From a virus: a stretch of DNA of 64,000 nucleotides. Both the position numbers and the translations under genes were made by a program. Shown piece by piece: positions 7,473 through 18,313 of the stretch (position 1 is its first letter; each line of letters starts with the position of its first letter). The stretch lies in the IMG/VR virus record IMGVR_UViG_3300020166_000747. One strand, written 5' to 3'. Under the pieces are notes generated by a model, which saw only the letters and a list, made by a program, of their open reading frames with translations, ran no database searches and had not been told where the DNA came from.

Positions 7473-8930
7473 ATGAAACTGTCACAACTAATCGAGTCTT
7501 TTGTAATCTCTAACGATGAATTCGAAGATTACCTAAACAGAGCAACAGAACAATTAACACAAGAACTACAGTCAGGTAAGAACCCACGTGACGCAGTTCA
7601 TGATTTAGCATTAACATTTGCTGATCAACACAACAAATCATATGATGCGTACACACGTATGTCAGACTCATTATCAGCAAGAATGCACACGTTAGAACTA
7701 GATGGTTCAACGTCCACTGAAATAGCTCCTGCCGATATGACGAACGGACCAGACATGTCTGACATGGGCGGTGAACCAGAGATGATGACAGACCCAATGG
7801 GCGACATGGAAATGGACGTACCAGCAGAAGATGACATGCCAGGTGACAGTGACATGGACGACTATTCTGCGGTAATGGATAACAAGCCAGAAGTTGAAGA
7901 ATCATATTCTCAAGGTGATGAAAATGAAGAAGGCATGGTAAGTAATTGCTGTGGCGCTCCTATTATGGATGTTTATCAAGGACATGGCAGATGCTCAGAT
8001 TGTAAAGAAATGGCAAGTGCTGAAAGTGTAAACGAAGGTACAAAAGGTTGTGCTGATTGCGAATGGATCAAAGACGAAACCGATGGCGACATTGATACAT
8101 GTGATGAATGTGCGGCGGAAAAGCGCAAGACTAATGAAGCATCAGATGCAGATGAGAAAGCACGCCAACGTGCGTTTGCTAAAGCAGATGAACCAGAGCG
8201 CGGTGAGAAACCTAAAAAGGTATCTCTAAAGAAAGCTCCATGGGAAGAGTCAGTAAACGAAGCGAAAGCATCAATCCTAGACCAACTAAAAGGTATTGTA
8301 GATGACAAGCAAGCGAAATCAATCAAGTTTGATGATGGTTCTTCAAAAGTAGATATGTTCACAGCATCAGCTATTACACAAGTACATGCTAAAGTAAACG
8401 ATGATAACAAAGCTAAAATTGAAAAAATGCTTAACACTCGTACAGGTTTAATGAAGATTGCTAAAGTTGCAATGGGTGCGTTAAAAGAAGGTAAACTAGA
8501 CGAAGTACTTCCAGTACTTCCAGTAGTAGGTGCTGTAGCAGGCGGCATTGCAAGAGCAGCTGCTTCGGCAGTAGGTGGCGTAGCTAAAGCGGCAATGTCA
8601 AAAGGCATTAAAGGTGCTGCAACACGTGCGGGCATCAAGGGTGTTGCAAAGAGTGCGTTCTCTAATGAAGCAGAAGAAATGGCAAATAAGATTGTTCGCA
8701 CAAGTTCGCGTCAATCATTCTCAGAGTACAATGAATTCTATAAAGCACTAGACTCAGCAGCCAAAGCAGGCAAAAAAGCTGGTGACCACATTGAAGTTGG
8801 TGGCAAGAAAGTAAAGCTAAAGTCAGATCCAAAAGAAATTCACAACCTATCAGACGCAGAGATGGATAAAATCGATGCACTAGCACTACGTCTGAACGAA
8901 AAAAGTTGTTCATCAAAATATAAAAAATAA
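7473..8930 (+). CDS. putative prohead core/scaffold-like polyprotein
   Basis: MKLSQLIES start, Met/Asp low-complexity tract, Cys-pair segments, repeated ESVNE linkers. Confidence 0.55.
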   Translation: MKLSQLIESFVISNDEFEDYLNRATEQLTQELQSGKNPRDAVHDLALTFADQHNKSYDAYTRMSDSLSARMHTLELDGSTSTEIAPADMTNGPDMSDMGGEPEMMTDPMGDMEMDVPAEDDMPGDSDMDDYSAVMDNKPEVEESYSQGDENEEGMVSNCCGAPIMDVYQGHGRCSDCKEMASAESVNEGTKGCADCEWIKDETDGDIDTCDECAAEKRKTNEASDADEKARQRAFAKADEPERGEKPKKVSLKKAPWEESVNEAKASILDQLKGIVDDKQAKSIKFDDGSSKVDMFTASAITQVHAKVNDDNKAKIEKMLNTRTGLMKIAKVAMGALKEGKLDEVLPVLPVVGAVAGGIARAAASAVGGVAKAAMSKGIKGAATRAGIKGVAKSAFSNEAEEMANKIVRTSSRQSFSEYNEFYKALDSAAKAGKKAGDHIEVGGKKVKLKSDPKEIHNLSDAEMDKIDALALRLNEKSCSSKYKK

Positions 8931-8933
8931 CTA

Positions 8934-8962
8934 TTGACATAAGAACACCTCTGTGTTATATT
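8934..8962 (+). promoter_or_regulatory. sigma70-type promoter
   Basis: TTGACA-N17-TATATT. Confidence 0.7.
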
Positions 8963-9016: not shown

Positions 9017-9277
9017 ATGTCATTAGATACTATTTCAAGCGAAGAAAAAGCAAAACTAAAGCAACTTGTAGACGAAGGATGTTCTGTACTACAAGAAGTA
9101 GACGACCTTAAAGGCGGACTACGTGATACAGTAAAAGCAATCGCTGAAGAACTAGATATTAAACCCGCAGTACTTAACAAAGCAATTTCACTTGCACATA
9201 AAGCAAATCTTCAAGGGGCGAAACAAGACTTCGAAGATGTTGAAACTGTTCTACAAACTGTAGGACGCACACTATAA
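9017..9277 (+). CDS. dsDNA-binding protein (T4 DsbA/GapR-like)
   Basis: Small helical protein LKQLVDE...LRDTVKAIAEELDIKPAVLNKAI, directly upstream of the polymerase. Confidence 0.6.
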   Translation: MSLDTISSEEKAKLKQLVDEGCSVLQEVDDLKGGLRDTVKAIAEELDIKPAVLNKAISLAHKANLQGAKQDFEDVETVLQTVGRTL

Positions 9278-12076
9278 ATGAGTTATGTAGACGCATATTA
9301 CAATAAAGATAAAGATATTGTGCAAGTCGTTGAACGTGTCAACGGCAAGCGCATTTATCAAGATTATCCTGCGTGGCGTACATTCTATGTACGTGACGAT
9401 AGGGGTTCTCATACAAGTATTCACGGCGAGAAAGTACGTCAAGTAAAAGTGAAACGCTTGAAGGATATGCATAAAGAGCTACGTATAAACTCAGATAAGA
9501 AGATTTACGAGAGTGATATTAAACCAGAAGTTCGCTGTCTAGCGGAGAACTATCTTGGTAAGGACTCTCCTGAACTGAATGTAGCGTTTTTCGATATCGA
9601 GGTGGACTTTGATGCTGACCGAGGCTTTGCCCCGCCAGAAGATCCGTTCATGCCAATTACAGCGATTACAGTTCATCTACAATGGCTAGATCAACTTGTA
9701 ACGTTTGTTATCCCGCCTGAGGATATGCGCGATGGTGAGGGACTAGAAGAAGCACAACGCTTGTGTGATAAATTCGAGAATACGTTCTTGTATCTATCAG
9801 AAGCAGATATGCTTAACGACTTTCTAGCTCTTATCGAAGATGCAGATGTCCTCAGTGGTTGGAACAGTGAAGGTTTCGATATTCCATATACTGTCAATCG
9901 GATTATTCGTATTCTAAGTAAGTCACACTTGCGTAAACTATGTTTGTGGGACTTGATGCCGAAGTCAAAGATGATTGTCAAGTATGGACGCGAACAGCAA
10001 AGCTATGTATTGTCTGGTCGTATTCACCTCGATTATCTTGAACTGTATCGCAAGTATACATATCACGAAATGCATTCATATTCACTAGATGCTATTGGCG
10101 AGTATGAAGTAGGTGAGAAAAAGATTGCATATGAAGGTACACTAGACCAACTATACAATCAAGACTTCTATAAGTTTATTGAATACAATAGACAAGACGT
10201 TGCACTACTTGACCAACTAGACAAAAAGTTACGTTTCATTGATTTGGCTAATGAAATTGCCCACGATAATACTGTTAATATTCAGACCACAATGGGTGCG
10301 GTTGCTGTTACTGAACAAGCTATCATCAACGAAGCACACAGACGTGGTATGGTTGTGCCAGATAGAAAGCGCCGTAGTTGGGATACAGAAGACGAAGATT
10401 ACGAGCCTACTCTAGAGGAAGAAGCAGAAGCAGAAGCGCAGAAAGCGGCTGGTGCGTTTGTTGCAGATCCTCAAAAGGGTATTCAGCGTTGGGTAGCAGG
10501 TATCGATATTAACTCACTGTATCCTTCTATCATTCGCGCATTGAATATGTCGCCAGAGACTATTACTGCACAGCTCCGCCAAGATTATACAACAGAAATG
10601 ATTTCATCACGTATTCAAAAAGGTCGTGGCGGCAAGAACAAAGGCTTTGGTGCAGCTCAAGCATGGGAGGATACATTCTGTACAGAAGAATTCCGTTTCA
10701 TGAATGAGAAAGACAAAACGCATATGATGCATCTTGACATGGAGAACGAAGAAGTTCACCAAGTATCGGGAGCAGAAGCATATGACTTGCTTTATAACTC
10801 TGGTCTGCCATGGGCAATGAGTGCCAACGGCACAGTGTTCAAGCAAGACGTACAAGGGATCATCCCTAGCTTGTTAGAACGTTGGTATGCAGAGCGACAA
10901 GTAATTCAAAAGAAAATGCGTGAAGTTCGTGAGAACGGTGGCACCAGTGATGAAATCGCATACTATGATAAGCGTCAGCTTGTTAAAAAGATTAACTTGA
11001 ACAGTTTGTATGGTGCGATTCTTAATCAGGGTTGTCGCTTTTACGATAAACGTATTGGTCAATCGACTACTCTTAGCGGGCGGTGTATCACACGTCACAT
11101 GGGCGCCAAGACTAACGAAGTTATCGATGGTACATATGACTACAAAGGCAAGTCTGTAATCTATGGTGATACTGACTCTATCTACTATTCAATGTATCCT
11201 TCATACCAGAAAGAGATTGACAGTGGCGAGATTCAGTGGGACAAAGAGATTGCTCTTACGATGTATGATGAAATTGCAAATCAAGTGAATGCGAGTTTCC
11301 CAGACTTTATGAAAGAGTTCTTTAATTGTCCACGTAAGCAAGGTGAAATCATTGCCGCAGGTCGTGAAAACTTAGCAACGATGGCTATCTTTATTAAGAA
11401 GAAACGTTATGCAATGCTGATTTATGACGATGATGGCGTAAGAAAAGACGTAGACGGTAATCCGGGCAAAGTTAAAGCAATGGGCCTCGACTTGAAGCGC
11501 AGTGATACTCCAGACTACATGCAAAAATTTCTTAGTGAATGTCTGCTAACTGTTCTTACTAATGGTACACAAGATGACCTTGTTGAGATGGTTAAAGAGT
11601 TCAAGCAAGAATTTCGTGAGAAGCCTGGTTGGGAGAAAGGTACTCCCAAGCGTGTTAACAACTTGACTAAGTTCAAGAACGATGTTGCGAAATATAAAAA
11701 AGCACAGAATGCTGATTTCAAATTAACAAGTTCAGAAGATAAGCTACAGAAGCCAAGACTTCCTGGGCATGTTAGTGCAGCTCTTAATTGGAATACATTG
11801 CGTGAAATGAATAGTGACAAATACTCTGTTGAGATTACAGATGGTATGAAAACTATTGTATGTAAACTCAAAGATAATCCAATGAAGATTACAAGTGTTG
11901 CATATCCGATTGATGAAAGTCGAATTCCACAATGGTTTCAAGAATTGCCGTTCGATCATGACTTGATGGAAACAGCAATCATTGATAAGAAGATTGATAA
12001 CCTTATCGGCGTTCTTAAATGGGACTTGAGTGCGGCAAGCACTAGTGAAACTTTTGATAACTTGTTTGATTTCTAA
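9278..12076 (+). CDS. family B DNA polymerase (gp43-like)
   Basis: Exo motifs FFDIE, GWNSEGFDIPY, YNRQD; polymerase motifs DINSLYPS, KINLNSLYG, YGDTDS. Confidence 0.97.
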   Translation: MSYVDAYYNKDKDIVQVVERVNGKRIYQDYPAWRTFYVRDDRGSHTSIHGEKVRQVKVKRLKDMHKELRINSDKKIYESDIKPEVRCLAENYLGKDSPELNVAFFDIEVDFDADRGFAPPEDPFMPITAITVHLQWLDQLVTFVIPPEDMRDGEGLEEAQRLCDKFENTFLYLSEADMLNDFLALIEDADVLSGWNSEGFDIPYTVNRIIRILSKSHLRKLCLWDLMPKSKMIVKYGREQQSYVLSGRIHLDYLELYRKYTYHEMHSYSLDAIGEYEVGEKKIAYEGTLDQLYNQDFYKFIEYNRQDVALLDQLDKKLRFIDLANEIAHDNTVNIQTTMGAVAVTEQAIINEAHRRGMVVPDRKRRSWDTEDEDYEPTLEEEAEAEAQKAAGAFVADPQKGIQRWVAGIDINSLYPSIIRALNMSPETITAQLRQDYTTEMISSRIQKGRGGKNKGFGAAQAWEDTFCTEEFRFMNEKDKTHMMHLDMENEEVHQVSGAEAYDLLYNSGLPWAMSANGTVFKQDVQGIIPSLLERWYAERQVIQKKMREVRENGGTSDEIAYYDKRQLVKKINLNSLYGAILNQGCRFYDKRIGQSTTLSGRCITRHMGAKTNEVIDGTYDYKGKSVIYGDTDSIYYSMYPSYQKEIDSGEIQWDKEIALTMYDEIANQVNASFPDFMKEFFNCPRKQGEIIAAGRENLATMAIFIKKKRYAMLIYDDDGVRKDVDGNPGKVKAMGLDLKRSDTPDYMQKFLSECLLTVLTNGTQDDLVEMVKEFKQEFREKPGWEKGTPKRVNNLTKFKNDVAKYKKAQNADFKLTSSEDKLQKPRLPGHVSAALNWNTLREMNSDKYSVEITDGMKTIVCKLKDNPMKITSVAYPIDESRIPQWFQELPFDHDLMETAIIDKKIDNLIGVLKWDLSAASTSETFDNLFDF

Positions 12077-12660
12077 TGGCTAAAAGAACACACTTAGAAT
12101 TAGTACAGAACTTAGGCAGAAATGCTGCGTCGGATGAGTGTTATACTCCGCCTGATTCAGTTGAGCCACTATTGAAGTACTTAGATAAAGATGCGACATA
12201 CTATGAAGCGACAAGCGGAAAGTCGGGTCTGATTGTAGAAGGGTTTACCAAGTTTGGTTATAATATCAAACCTAGTAACGGCAAAGATTTTTTTGAATGT
12301 GCGCCAAGTGATGTATATGATGGTATCATTACTAACCCTCCCTACTCACTAAAAGATAAGTTTATCCGACATTGCTATGATTTGGGTAAACCGTTTGCAC
12401 TATTCTTACCAGTTGCAAGTTTTCAAGGCGCAGCACGTGGCAAGATGTTTATGGAACACGGTATGTCTGCATTAGTATACAACAATCGTGTTGACTTTAC
12501 TGGCGGTGGATCCCCACCATTCGGAAACGCTTGGTTTATTCATGGTTTCTTACCGCCCAACACTATCTATTGGGTTGATAATCCATCTACAGCCAACCCA
12601 AGAAAAGAAAAAACAGACGATACAAGTGAGAAAACGTTTGACAGTCTGTTTGATTTGTGA
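12076..12660 (+). CDS. DNA N6-adenine (amino) methyltransferase
   Basis: DECYTP, EATSGKSG, DFF, IITNPPYS. Confidence 0.85.
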   Translation: MAKRTHLELVQNLGRNAASDECYTPPDSVEPLLKYLDKDATYYEATSGKSGLIVEGFTKFGYNIKPSNGKDFFECAPSDVYDGIITNPPYSLKDKFIRHCYDLGKPFALFLPVASFQGAARGKMFMEHGMSALVYNNRVDFTGGGSPPFGNAWFIHGFLPPNTIYWVDNPSTANPRKEKTDDTSEKTFDSLFDL

Positions 12661-12700
12661 TAGCATACTTCTACTTAAATCAAATCAGTGAAGGGAAAAA

Positions 12701-13261
12701 ATGAGACTAACTGATATTAAACTAGAGAACTACATAGGCACCGTACTAGAAGTTGAAGGTATCGGTGATGGCAAATATGGCAACGTAATTGAAAAATGGG
12801 CAGTGCATGATGTGCTAGGATTAGATAGTTATAATACTGGCGAAGGACCTGATATTCTCAATGGAGAACACAGTATTGAAATCAAATCACAAAGTACACA
12901 TACTGATGCAAATGTTACAATAACTGGATTGACACCGTCCGATCTTAAAAGTTATGATAACTGGAGTAAATTAAAGAAGCAAAAAGCTAATAGTGATTTT
13001 ATCTTTGTGACATACGATGCATACGATGGTGTAATTGAAATCGTAGATATGATGGTCATTCTTAGAAGTGAATTTGCTGATATATTCGAAAGAAAAATTC
13101 GATCTGCATTAGCTAGACCAGGCAAAACTATTGATGGTGTAATTGTCGAAACTGGAAAGTACCCGAGATTACGTATTACTCAAGATAGAGTAAAAAAAGA
13201 TATCATACGTAAATCTAGTAAAGCAAAACATTCTACTATTGACTCACTGTTCGAAGTGTGA
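12701..13261 (+). CDS. PD-(D/E)XK nuclease, restriction endonuclease-like
   Basis: GPDIL...IEIKSQ motif; adjacent to the MTase. Confidence 0.55.
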   Translation: MRLTDIKLENYIGTVLEVEGIGDGKYGNVIEKWAVHDVLGLDSYNTGEGPDILNGEHSIEIKSQSTHTDANVTITGLTPSDLKSYDNWSKLKKQKANSDFIFVTYDAYDGVIEIVDMMVILRSEFADIFERKIRSALARPGKTIDGVIVETGKYPRLRITQDRVKKDIIRKSSKAKHSTIDSLFEV

Positions 13262-13267
13262 TATAAT
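13239..13267 (+). promoter_or_regulatory. sigma70-type promoter inside the 3' end of the upstream gene
   Basis: TTGACT-N17-TATAAT. Confidence 0.7.
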
Positions 13268-13295
13268 AGTAATTAATAAAATATAGGAGAACGCA

Positions 13296-14051
13296 ATGCG
13301 TGACATTTTAAAAGATATTGTGAAACACACACATTCGCTTGGTATCATCCAAGCAGCAAAAGTGACAACTGATAACGAAACAACAACACTAGATGCAATG
13401 GACGATGACCGTACTGTTGTGCTACGTGCAAAGCTACATGACCGTGTTCCAGAATTTGAAGGTAAGTTCGGTCTAGGTCGTCTTGGTGTACTAAATGGTT
13501 ATCTCGGTTACGAAAGCCGTAACACAGAAAATGAAGTCGTAGGTACACACGTAGAGATTAATCGGGTAGAGCGTAATGGCGAAGAAGTTCCAGCAGAGTT
13601 CAACTTTACTATTCCAGGTATTCTGAATTCTACATATCGTGTAATCACCGCAGAACTTGTTGATGCACAGATTAAAACAGCAAACTTCAAAGGTGCGAAG
13701 TGGGATGTCGAGGTAATGCCAACACAGCAAGCAATCAAAGATTTGCAAACTGTTGCAGGCATTCTGAGTTCATACGATCCGCTATTTACAGTGCGCACAG
13801 TAGATGGCAATCTACAATTCACAATTGGTGATGCATCAACTGATAAAGCAGAAATGACGTTTGCACGTAACGTAAACGGCGAATTGAAATCAGGTTGGTC
13901 TTTCCCACTTGCAACAGTTCTAACTATCTTGAAGCTAGGTGATACATCGTCTATGAGCATTAAGATTTCAGATCAAGGTGCAATGGCTATTCACGTAGAC
14001 TCAGGAATGGGCCTATATGAGTACATTTTGCCTGCTAAATCTGGTAATTAA
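13296..14051 (+). CDS. DNA sliding clamp (gp45-like)
   Basis: 251 aa, replication cluster, EFEGKFG and C-terminal YEYILPA pattern typical of phage clamps. Confidence 0.65.
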   Translation: MRDILKDIVKHTHSLGIIQAAKVTTDNETTTLDAMDDDRTVVLRAKLHDRVPEFEGKFGLGRLGVLNGYLGYESRNTENEVVGTHVEINRVERNGEEVPAEFNFTIPGILNSTYRVITAELVDAQIKTANFKGAKWDVEVMPTQQAIKDLQTVAGILSSYDPLFTVRTVDGNLQFTIGDASTDKAEMTFARNVNGELKSGWSFPLATVLTILKLGDTSSMSIKISDQGAMAIHVDSGMGLYEYILPAKSGN

Positions 14052-14095
14052 CCTAAATAATACCATAAGCAATTAATATAAGGATACAATAATAA

Positions 14096-15658
14096 ATGGT
14101 AAAAGACTTAGGTAAAAACAATATCAATAGCGGATATGCAGTATTTCTGCCCGCTATCTCTAACTTCTATGTTCGCAAAGTATCACAGCACTATGCAGGT
14201 ACAACAGACATGTTCCCTCCTGAGCGTATCCCTGAGGGGTTCGAGCATGGTCTGGATGGGCTAAACATCTTAGACAAAGATAAAGGCTATGTGTATTATT
14301 CACATGGTCTTTATTCTGCTGGTCACGCTGAACTAGATTTAGAAAAAACTAAAATCGAAGATGGAATGATTGTTAACCGTAATCGTGAAGACACAGTTCT
14401 AGTAGGGGATTCAGGCGGGTATCAGATTGGTACTGGTGCTTGGAAACTAGACTGGTCTTCATTCTATGATAAAGAAGGCGATTGGGCTAAAACACGTCAT
14501 GGTATCATGGCGTGGTTAGAAGAATATTGTGACTACTCTATGACACTTGATATTCCGGGTTGGGCATGTTTGCCGCAATATCGTGATAAGAACGGTATTA
14601 AAAACTGGGATGAATGCGTAGATAAAACAATCTTCAATCACGAATACTTTATCAACAACCGTACACCAGGCAAGACTAAGTTTCTAAACACTTTACACGG
14701 TTCTAATTGGGACACTAGTGAAAAGTGGTATGAGAAAGTCAAGCACTTCAATGACAAGTCAGTATATGGCGACAGGGCATTTGAAGGTTATGCGATGGCA
14801 GGGGATCATGCAGGTGATGCGGAACTACTACTACGTAGACTTATTCGTTTACGAGATGATGGTTTGCTGGGACAAGCAGACCAATCAGATGTTTGGATTC
14901 ATACTCTTGGTATTAGCGTTCTCCCATGGGGTGCTATGTTAACAGCAATCCAACGACAACTACGAAAGCATGTCAATCCAAACATTACAATCTCTTTTGA
15001 TGCGGCATCTCCCTACATTACAGCATCAAAAGGGTTAGCTTATGACTATCCTGACTTGAATGGTAACGCTTGGTCTTACAAGACTAAGAAGTTGAATTGG
15101 CGTCAAGATATCAGCAATGATAAACAACCCTGGTTGTATGAAGGGGAAATCGGCTCACGTTTGAATATGCGAGATATCAATTACATGCAACCCGGTATGC
15201 TAAATCGCAACAAAAAAGAAGCTAAATCAAGTTGGGATAGTCTAAGCTATATTTTAATTCAAGCACATAATGCTGAATATCATATTCGTGGTATGCAAGA
15301 CGCAATACGCAGGTTCGACCATGAATACGAAATGTTGCATGATAAACTAGATATCAACAACATGAGTTTGGGTAAAACTAACGTACTATCCGATGTAGTC
15401 CCAGATAGAGTTCTATACTTCGCTAAGTTCGTAGAAGAATTGTTTGATCCCAAGACAACTGATCCTATGCAAATGCTAGGTGACTTTAAAGCGTTTCTAC
15501 GTAAATGTGAAGGTTCACGTGTTCAGAACATTTCTACTACTCCAGACTTTATGGAGTTTGAAGAAGCAAATGTGAAGACCGAAGAATTTGTAGAAGCAGT
15601 TAAGGGCAAGAAGAAAGAATACGAAGAACCTGAAGGAATAGCAGACTTATTCGGATAA
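14096..15658 (+). CDS. TGT-fold guanine transglycosylase (DpdA-like)
   Basis: GDSGGYQ and MTLDIP TGT motifs, HTLG, SFDAAS; clustered with queD-like, folE and queE. Confidence 0.75.
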   Translation: MVKDLGKNNINSGYAVFLPAISNFYVRKVSQHYAGTTDMFPPERIPEGFEHGLDGLNILDKDKGYVYYSHGLYSAGHAELDLEKTKIEDGMIVNRNREDTVLVGDSGGYQIGTGAWKLDWSSFYDKEGDWAKTRHGIMAWLEEYCDYSMTLDIPGWACLPQYRDKNGIKNWDECVDKTIFNHEYFINNRTPGKTKFLNTLHGSNWDTSEKWYEKVKHFNDKSVYGDRAFEGYAMAGDHAGDAELLLRRLIRLRDDGLLGQADQSDVWIHTLGISVLPWGAMLTAIQRQLRKHVNPNITISFDAASPYITASKGLAYDYPDLNGNAWSYKTKKLNWRQDISNDKQPWLYEGEIGSRLNMRDINYMQPGMLNRNKKEAKSSWDSLSYILIQAHNAEYHIRGMQDAIRRFDHEYEMLHDKLDINNMSLGKTNVLSDVVPDRVLYFAKFVEELFDPKTTDPMQMLGDFKAFLRKCEGSRVQNISTTPDFMEFEEANVKTEEFVEAVKGKKKEYEEPEGIADLFG

Positions 15659-18264: not shown

Positions 18265-18313
18265 TTGACAATCTAACCCACTTGTAGTATTATAATATTA
18301 TGAGTGGGTTTTT
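18265..18313 (+). terminator. 16-bp hairpin terminator enclosing a sigma70 -10 box
   Basis: Stem 18275-18290/18295-18310 with three G-U pairs plus T run; TTGACA at 18265, TATTAT at 18288. Confidence 0.75.

Follow-up and report, generated by a model that had tools for sequence, protein, structure and literature searches.

The closest described precedent for the arrangement examined here comes from phage T4, whose gp43, gp55 and gp33 are reported to bind the clamp gp45 through similar hydrophobic-acidic ends that are interchangeable; additionally, the clamp of RB69 has been co-crystallised with the 11 C-terminal residues of its polymerase (PMC2988020). In the T4 record, gp43 ends in SLDFLFG and gp55 in SLDFLYEAND. 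Here, we analyzed a stretch of viral DNA of 64,000 nucleotides (nt), IMG/VR record IMGVR_UViG_3300020166_000747 (the window), which is part of an uncultured marine jumbo phage of ~340 kb. Four of its genes, located around a probable sliding clamp gene, end in short hydrophobic-acidic peptides with a Leu-Phe (LF) core, comparable to those of T4 gp43 and gp55. We propose that these acidic-LF tails dock enzymes on the phage clamp, with the tails of two inserted genes being either optional or by-products, and assign this reading a probability of about 0.6.

In eukaryotic maintenance methylation, DNMT1 is recruited to PCNA via an internal PIP box. For the modification of phage DNA by 7-deazaguanines, the excerpted text of a study on phage DpdA1-DpdA4 and bacterial bDpdA describes a post-replicative base exchange, leaves unaddressed how the enzyme finds new DNA, and states that the distant TGT homologues DpdA3 and DpdA4 escape standard searches (PMC10516641). 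A deazaguanine synthesis and incorporation system is described for the jumbo phage PA5oct (PMC7824862). Among titles and abstracts, we found none that tied DpdA or 7-deazaguanine to a sliding clamp, or clamp-binding motifs to phage methylases.

Four tails and a probable sliding clamp

The gene order in the window was family B polymerase, methylase, nuclease-like protein, PCNA/gp45-like clamp and DpdA-like transglycosylase, followed by 7-deazaguanine synthesis genes. The features concerned are listed here (aa, amino acids; ORF, open reading frame).

9278–12076, + strand: family B DNA polymerase, 932 aa (Pfam DNA_pol_B, 3e-36; DNA_pol_B_exo1, 2e-20)
12050–12073, + strand: polymerase tail TFDNLFDF (ORF end ...SETFDNLFDF), putative clamp-binding peptide
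12076–12660, + strand: DNA methyltransferase (methylase), 194 aa (phrog_799 'DNA methyltransferase', 6e-33, residues 17-180)
12634–12657, + strand: methylase tail TFDSLFDL (ORF end ...EKTFDSLFDL)
12701–13261, + strand: small protein, 186 aa, with the motif GPD (49-52)...EIK (60-62) as the sole basis for a nuclease label
13235–13258, + strand: tail of the nuclease-like protein, TIDSLFEV (ORF end ...HSTIDSLFEV)
13296–14051, + strand: putative sliding clamp, 251 aa (ESM Atlas neighbours, depositors' names, weak gp45 profile match)
14096–15658, + strand: TGT/DpdA-like transglycosylase, 520 aa (DSGGYQ at residue 105, GYAMAG at 231, FDAASP at 301)
15635–15655, + strand: DpdA-like tail GIADLFG (ORF end ...EPEGIADLFG), after the charged linker KGKKKEYEEPE

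The four-tail observation is real and not a chance effect. An earlier note on this DNA had listed the four C-termini and two TTGAC boxes (12638 and 13239); the boxes are there, and the termini are present exactly as given, on four same-strand ORFs. Among 532 stop-to-stop frames of at least 40 aa in the whole window, the ending [DE]xLF.{0,3}$ occurred in only three, those of the polymerase, the methylase and the nuclease-like protein, which are consecutive genes beside the clamp gene. The fourth tail, DLFG in the DpdA-like enzyme, has a different and shorter form than the three upstream ones. The latter also constitute a family of direct repeats at the DNA level, with three copies 70-73% identical over 30 nt, and with 76% identity between the polymerase and methylase copies over 33 nt.

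Relatives were gathered by scanning IMG/VR with the window's clamp, which yielded 80 loci at 70-98% identity, and 81 loci with the window included, all of them picked via the candidate clamp gene itself. Nearly complete genomes of 342 kb (G001 and G002) hold two of the 80. The nearest named phages were the jumbo phages PA5oct and its kin, Phosso, and Vibrio phage 2.275.O, and a megablast of the region against phages returned nothing beyond one 51-nt match in the polymerase.

The polymerase orthologue (3' end) was found in 78 of the 81 loci and the tail was kept in every one, as 15 distinct peptides encoded by 25 distinct DNAs. Because this tail is coded TTTGAT and not TTGAC, it shares no DNA with a promoter and its sequence is not constrained by one. 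By analogy with T4 gp43, the acidic-hydrophobic C-terminal peptide is most likely the clamp-binding peptide of the polymerase, and we consider it very probable that it is a working clamp ligand. In PA5oct (L001, 3685-8911), the record annotates the polymerase as two coding sequences with a Hef-like homing endonuclease gene between them, the second part having the C-terminus HFDSLFGW.

The 13296 protein is probably the sliding clamp. Homologues that are 38-40% identical have been named 'proliferating cell nuclear antigen' (phage PAC2) and 'sliding clamp beta' (Phosso) by their depositors, and its ESM Atlas neighbours included clusters with PCNA_N or gp45-slide_C (scores 0.93-0.95, 188-199 shared features). 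When a 136-sequence profile of the clamp family was compared with a 10-sequence gp45 profile in hhalign, residues 140-251 aligned with gp45 domain 1 (E 3.6e-5, probability 71%) and residues 2-138 with gp45 domain 2 (E 0.0055, probability 7%), with reversed and unrelated controls at E 0.5; the comparison is suggestive only with this gp45 profile and was not significant against the single T4 gp45 sequence. The length of 251 aa is compatible with a two-domain clamp. Pfam searches of 136 clamp-family relatives returned one PCNA_N match at E 0.028 and one DNA_pol3_beta match at E 0.033, while those of 34 family members returned no clamp family. Sequence searches of the PDB with the clamp and TGT candidates, as single proteins and as profiles, gave nothing meaningful.

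Gene content and order are consistent with this identification. A clamp loader gene, of the DNA_pol3_delta2-type AAA+ class, was above the Pfam cut-off in all four related genomes searched, none of which had a Pfam-recognisable clamp. Jumbo phages of this replication type are described as having an RFC-family loader and a PCNA-superfamily clamp (PMC7824862). In 78 of the 81 loci, the clamp gene was downstream of the polymerase, either directly after it or, as in the window, with one to three genes between. In four loci, an ORF of 822-905 aa was located between the methylase and clamp genes (L021 4259-6886, L030 6557-9223, L041 7445-9913, L043 5487-8204); it had no family match and a C-terminus ...SWTF, without an acidic LF tail.

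The DpdA-like enzyme and its LF motif

The motifs of the 14096 protein were collinear with those of E. coli Tgt (DSGGFQ at 89, GYAVGG at 209, FDCVMP at 263), and hhalign aligned the two over 306 columns at E 0.0025 and a probability of 12%. Motifs of this type (DSGG[FY]Q, GYAxGG, [FM]DCxxP) hold the catalytic aspartates of the TGT superfamily. DSGGFQ was also found in the homologues from PA5oct, Phosso and 2.275.O, and the ESM Atlas likewise gave a TGT lead. Downstream of the gene were FolE (GTP cyclohydrolase I, 2e-38) and a weakly matching radical-SAM QueE-like gene (E 0.0083); this gene order recurs in the records of PA5oct and Phosso, where QueE and FolE are annotated. The window's candidate thus parallels the described DpdA enzymes (PMC10516641; see also PMC6884629) in being a putative TGT-superfamily protein beside FolE/QueE-type genes with the catalytic-type motifs DSGG[FY]Q and FDxxxP, and DpdA3 in that its distant homology to TGT escapes standard searches. 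In tblastn, it was not detectably related to any named DpdA phage in the collection, matching only PA5oct-like phages, Phosso and 2.275.O. Unlike what is described for DpdA, a clamp-docking tail would place its exchange reaction at the fork.

Within the 81 loci, the DpdA-like gene was present in 38, and all 38 ended in [VI]x[DEA]LF[GASR], that is, in LF plus one residue. These tails comprised 14 peptides and 16 DNAs, with Leu coded as tta, ttg, ctt or cta and Phe as ttt or ttc, and the linkers before them varied between loci (EPEGIA, TPDTVS, HPESVD). No TTGAC-type box was seen in or just after the DpdA-like tail in the printed sequences or the list of promoter sites.

The wider family carried a related motif at another position. 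Among the 120 best of 1531 DpdA-like homologues, a comparison that measures conservation and not independent origin, F..[LMF]F occurred in 105, in 90 of which it was 34-35 residues from the C-terminus, usually as NTFGSLFE; 3.6 of 120 were expected in shuffled tails, and other 60-residue windows of the same proteins had none (0/840). The terminal LF tail replaced the internal motif in five homologues, which represent the window's clade, and the remaining 10 mostly had variants at the same place, e.g., NKDLFDW. At the family's usual N-T-F-x-x-L-F-E place, alignment revealed a degenerate site in the window.

15542–15565, + strand: degenerate internal site PDFMEFEE

The window's clade has therefore lost the internal LF and gained one at the extreme C-terminus, a turnover typical of short linear motifs under selection. 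Beyond the internal motif, most homologues (P0006-P0120, and that of PA5oct) finished with another conserved acidic element, NPDDDELRxLEE, which was missing in the window's clade.

In other lineages, the DpdA-like motif was similar to the polymerase tail of the same phage. In 2.275.O, the polymerase ends in NNTDLFDW and the DpdA-like protein in NNNDLFGW. Across the L136-L215 clade (80 distant loci), the polymerase has NTFxKLFDFE and the DpdA-like motif is often ANTFGSLFDFDD, with NKDLFDW variants of the latter also occurring alongside the same polymerase tail. The PA5oct homologue (L001, 10075-11697) had the internal motif NSFNSLFDVD in the alignment, and that of Phosso ends in VEGLF. Phosso also encodes a 135-aa protein between FolE and QueE (L002, 12520-12927), without a Pfam match, that ends in NLNDLFDFG, and its polymerase ends in TTFNDLFTF.

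From these patterns, the DpdA-like enzyme most likely docks on the same clamp as the polymerase, and we rate its tail as a working clamp ligand with fairly good, if lesser, confidence than that of the polymerase. Mechanistically, the LF motif on its flexible charged linker would bring the enzyme to the clamp used by the polymerase, so that guanine would be exchanged for deazaguanine just behind the fork. If so, a conserved clamp-docking motif offers a concrete mechanism for jumbo-phage DpdA-like enzymes, and could explain how modification keeps pace with replication and, by extension, how newly made phage DNA escapes restriction. DNA-modifying enzymes would also join polymerase and late-transcription factors among the known clients of phage clamps. 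As with the T4 gp43, gp55 and gp33 peptides, the LF core is at the extreme C-terminus after a variable linker and is found in several proteins of one phage. In contrast to T4, where transcription factors are clients, those predicted here are DNA-modifying enzymes (transglycosylase, methylase, nuclease-like protein), the putative clamp is only remotely related to gp45, and most DpdA-like homologues carry an internal motif ~35 residues from the end.

Tail codons that probably double as promoter

The 12076 protein had the attributes of an N6-adenine/N4-cytosine DNA methyltransferase, namely the family profile and a (D/N)PPY motif, with NPPY at residue 87 and a conserved core ending in WVDNP (166-170), after which a linker and the tail follow. 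Its orthologue was present in 61 of the 81 loci and had an LF tail in 28; of the two 342-kb relatives, it ended in LF in one, and the orthologue in G002 ended in ...SIDIGID. The methylase is comparable to DNMT1 and PCNA in that a DNA methyltransferase is putatively tethered to a replication clamp by a short peptide, which would couple modification to replication, but it differs in being a small phage NPPY methylase, with a tail that is optional and overlaps a promoter.

The 186-aa protein had no Pfam, PHROG or NCBIfam match. Its GPD-x8-EIK pattern was conserved in 10 of 10 family members, and at the level of a motif-based guess it is probably a PD-(D/E)XK-type nuclease. The family comprised nine database clusters only, all at least 60% identical, and the gene was found in four of the 81 loci, each time with the tail. 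The STID[ST]LFE core was kept in all nine database homologues, three of which had extra or altered residues after it, and the gene was flanked by two copies of the tail repeat.

Both tails contain one of the TTGAC boxes introduced above, and each box belongs to a promoter-like site.

12638–12666, + strand: promoter-like site TTGACA-17-TAGCAT, with TG before the -10, inside the methylase tail and upstream of the nuclease-like gene
13239–13267, + strand: candidate clamp-gene promoter TTGACT-17-TATAAT, 11 of 12 consensus positions, TG present

In the clamp-gene site, the -35 and spacer are within the tail codons of the nuclease-like gene and the stop codon TGA supplies the TGn of an extended -10. 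Expressed generally, [F/I]-D plus an A-starting codon gives TTGACA, x-L-F-[D/E]-[L/V] gives the 17-nt spacer, TGA gives TGn, and TATAAT follows; the residue after F/I-D always had an A-starting codon, as TTGACA demands. Dual coding of this kind, in which a putative docking peptide shares its DNA with the next gene's promoter, is unusual and shows how such motifs can spread between genes.

The junction of the 12638 type was also present in L008 and L012. By eye, a TTGAC-type -35 with a -10-like hexamer could be made out ahead of the clamp gene in Phosso and in 19 of the 20 printed loci of the window's own group, while none was seen there in PA5oct or 2.275.O; in L043, the -35 was kept and there was no clear -10. 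In the window's clade, the gene that comes before the clamp gene, whatever its identity, contained the promoter in its tail codons, and in L071, where the polymerase directly precedes the clamp gene, it came after the polymerase stop codon. Region-wide, promoter-like sites were not more numerous than in shuffled sequence (30 versus 35.7).

Proteins of 202-205 aa without a Pfam or PHROG match were encoded directly upstream of the clamp gene in three loci (L016 9352-9969, L017 6586-7203, L030 9356-9964), and their ends, DNTFDKHFNM and DNMFDNMFEL, contain the -35 box of the clamp promoter.

We suggest that the methylase and nuclease-like tails represent a composite element, in which ~24 nt code for [F/I]-D-x-L-F-[D/E]-[L/V]-stop and would at the same time supply a sigma-70-type -35, spacer and TGn. 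The element would drive the next gene, which is the clamp gene in most relatives, with a weaker TAGCAT site ahead of the nuclease-like gene in the window, and would have been copied as genes were inserted between the polymerase and clamp genes. The resulting tails could provide optional clamp docking or could be by-products. A bolder version, in which a tail-plus-promoter module of ~24-30 nt forms a mobile dual-coding junction that drives the clamp gene and gives any upstream ORF a ready-made clamp-docking peptide, seems to us unlikely. If it were correct, new DNA-modifying or DNA-cutting enzymes (methylase, nuclease, 202-205 aa protein) would become part of the replisome as soon as they were acquired, and the phage clamp, with a clamp-tethered DpdA-like enzyme, would be a tool-belt for replication-coupled genome hypermodification.

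Weighing clamp docking against other explanations

Multiple observations weigh against clamp docking. Curated clamp models (Pfam, PHROGs, NCBIfam; PCNA_N, gp45-slide_C, DNA_pol3_beta) do not match the 13296 protein, and Pfam TGT (PF01702) missed the 14096 protein, 34 relatives and five related genomes while matching 14 of 14 control genomes. The earlier labels 'clamp', 'TGT' and 'nuclease' are thus named by no curated model (Pfam, PHROGs, NCBIfam) and draw on other, weaker evidence. Support from hhalign is modest, given the probabilities of 71% (for one clamp domain) and 12% (for the TGT candidate), and no internal repeat was detected in the clamp candidate (N half versus C half, E 0.3). The window's DpdA-like and polymerase tails have only D-L-F in common. 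Moreover, 33 of the 61 methylase orthologues have no such tail, and the methylase and nuclease-like tails overlap promoters. The methylase tail of L080, NNLFDL, and its downstream DNA match the 3' end of the L071 polymerase, and we therefore conclude that the tail was duplicated on insertion; the polymerase of L080 itself has other synonymous codons than this copy. In L043 (~8195-8265), just upstream of the clamp gene, a mini-ORF of 22 codons, MDFLRLEKYKTSNYTIDRLFEL, ends in TIDRLFEL. It overlaps the end of the upstream gene, carries the clamp promoter and resembles what would be left of a gene with a tail after its deletion; such DNA thus does not need an intact host gene to persist. Finally, the T4 alpha-glucosyltransferase was the subject of the one earlier phage proposal of this kind, a phage DNA-modifying enzyme that rides the phage clamp during replication, and a 2025 preprint reports that its coupling to gp45 could not be confirmed by pull-downs, either in vitro or in vivo (10.64898/2025.12.06.692756). 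That enzyme ends in ...KEQFDIITK, without an LF tail, whereas the window's enzymes carry a conserved polymerase-like motif.

The alternative with most in its favor is that the methylase and nuclease-like tails are functionless by-products of recombination at the repeated tail and promoter sequence, such that an ORF, once inserted, continues into a duplicate of the polymerase 3' end that is kept as the promoter of the next gene. The DNA repeat family of three tails, the -35, spacer and TGn inside the tail codons with the invariable A-starting codon, the L080 duplication, the 33 methylases without a tail, the untranslated or barely translated remnant that persists in L043, and the sporadic occurrence of the nuclease-like gene (4/81 loci), as expected of mobile genes, are all in keeping with this account. 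In T4-type phages, PeSL promoter cassettes are described as mediating modular shuffling (PMC2839356, PMC4122927). The window is similar in that repeats with promoters flank its variable genes and are the places where insertions and deletions occur, but here the repeated unit additionally specifies the C-terminal peptide of the gene before it. However, a sigma-70 spacer needs no set sequence, and the non-coding spacers in these loci differ freely (L071, L021, L042), while every spacer that is part of a read-through ORF codes for [LMF]F[DE][LVM], with codons that vary synonymously. Likewise, the tail-less methylases hold the TTGACA box and encode IDIGNE or similar, with no LF, and promoter constraint alone thus does not yield LF. 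A second form of the methylase tail (QF[DN]ILFE, VFDDLFE, IFNDLFE) ends before the next promoter, without overlap, and is still conserved with synonymous changes, and the core of the nuclease-like tail is kept at 60% overall identity. The DpdA-like tail is outside the scope of this account. We regard it as a possible explanation for the two tails, though one we would bet against.

Two further alternatives fared worse. The tails could be docking peptides for another partner, i.e., the host beta clamp, the clamp loader, a helicase or a single-strand binding protein. LF-containing peptides also bind bacterial beta clamps, the curated models do not recognise the 13296 protein as a clamp, and most DpdA-like homologues have the acidic element DDDELRxLEE after the motif. 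Against this, the tails resemble the ends of T4 gp43 and gp55, the candidate clamp gene lies directly between genes with tails in all 81 loci (a set itself selected through that gene), a phage clamp loader is present in four of four related genomes, and there is weak gp45 homology; we therefore find another partner improbable. Chance resemblance with no common cause is a negligible prospect. Loose endings, [LMIF]F.{0,2}$, are indeed common in this AT-rich genome and were not enriched among the called genes of the two 342-kb relatives (13/475 and 14/464) compared with their non-gene ORFs (89/1535 and 68/1040), but the strict form is confined to the three consecutive frames beside the clamp gene and the motif is conserved across the 81 loci and across the DpdA-like family.

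Taken by protein, clamp docking is likely for the polymerase and the DpdA-like enzyme, on the basis of conservation, varying linkers and codons, the family-wide LF motif, and its likeness to the polymerase tail of the same phage in distant lineages. For the other two proteins, the methylase and the one resembling a nuclease, it is uncertain. For the methylase tail, we see even odds of a working clamp ligand, and for the nuclease-like tail, odds a little short of even. The tails of these two proteins are at least partly products of a duplicated dual-coding tail-promoter element. The proposal of the earlier note, that DNA enzymes ride the clamp, is hence well supported by comparison for the first pair and ambiguous for the second. 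Tail conservation at other loci, one of the checks it had suggested, was complete for the polymerase (78/78), the DpdA-like enzyme (38/38) and the nuclease-like protein (4/4) and partial for the methylase (28/61). Its own alternative, promoter-constrained duplication of the polymerase 3' end, is partly borne out for the methylase and nuclease-like tails by the promoter overlap, the L080/L071 duplication and the loss in 33 of 61 loci, and it had rightly been observed that this does not explain the TGT tail.

Other LF endings and neighboring genes

LF-type endings conserved between the two 342-kb relatives were those of the polymerase, the DpdA-like enzyme, a GreA-like protein, the large terminase (TerL) and one 295/298-aa protein. 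The GreA/GreB-like ending was rejected as a tail, being within the Gre C-terminal domain, as was that of the large terminase (G002 223153-224712, G001 239416-241014), since its ending, PLPVLF/PLPIVF, is not acidic. A DNA pattern for LF-x-[WFLC]-stop, applied to PA5oct, Phosso and 2.275.O, was too loose, with control counts about equal; among the matches listed, none of the nine sites followed ended a long ORF, the longest frame being 89 aa, 29 from Met.

Ahead of the polymerase, the window encodes an 86-aa protein (9017-9277; phrog_12534, and more weakly phrog_639 'transcriptional regulator'), the gene for which also precedes the polymerase in those relatives whose region was printed. Near-consensus promoter-like sites with 11 of 12 positions were located ahead of the operon of this gene and the polymerase (8934-8962) and ahead of folE (18265-18293).

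Outside the window, the 295/298-aa proteins are orthologous and 61% identical, without a family match (G002 336343-337239, + strand, 298 aa; G001 228150-229037, - strand, 295 aa). They have an 'ADSDA' DxD-like pattern, and a linker followed by the LF endings FGSLFD and KNALFSF. On these sequence features, the protein may be another clamp-tail client, perhaps a glycosyltransferase.

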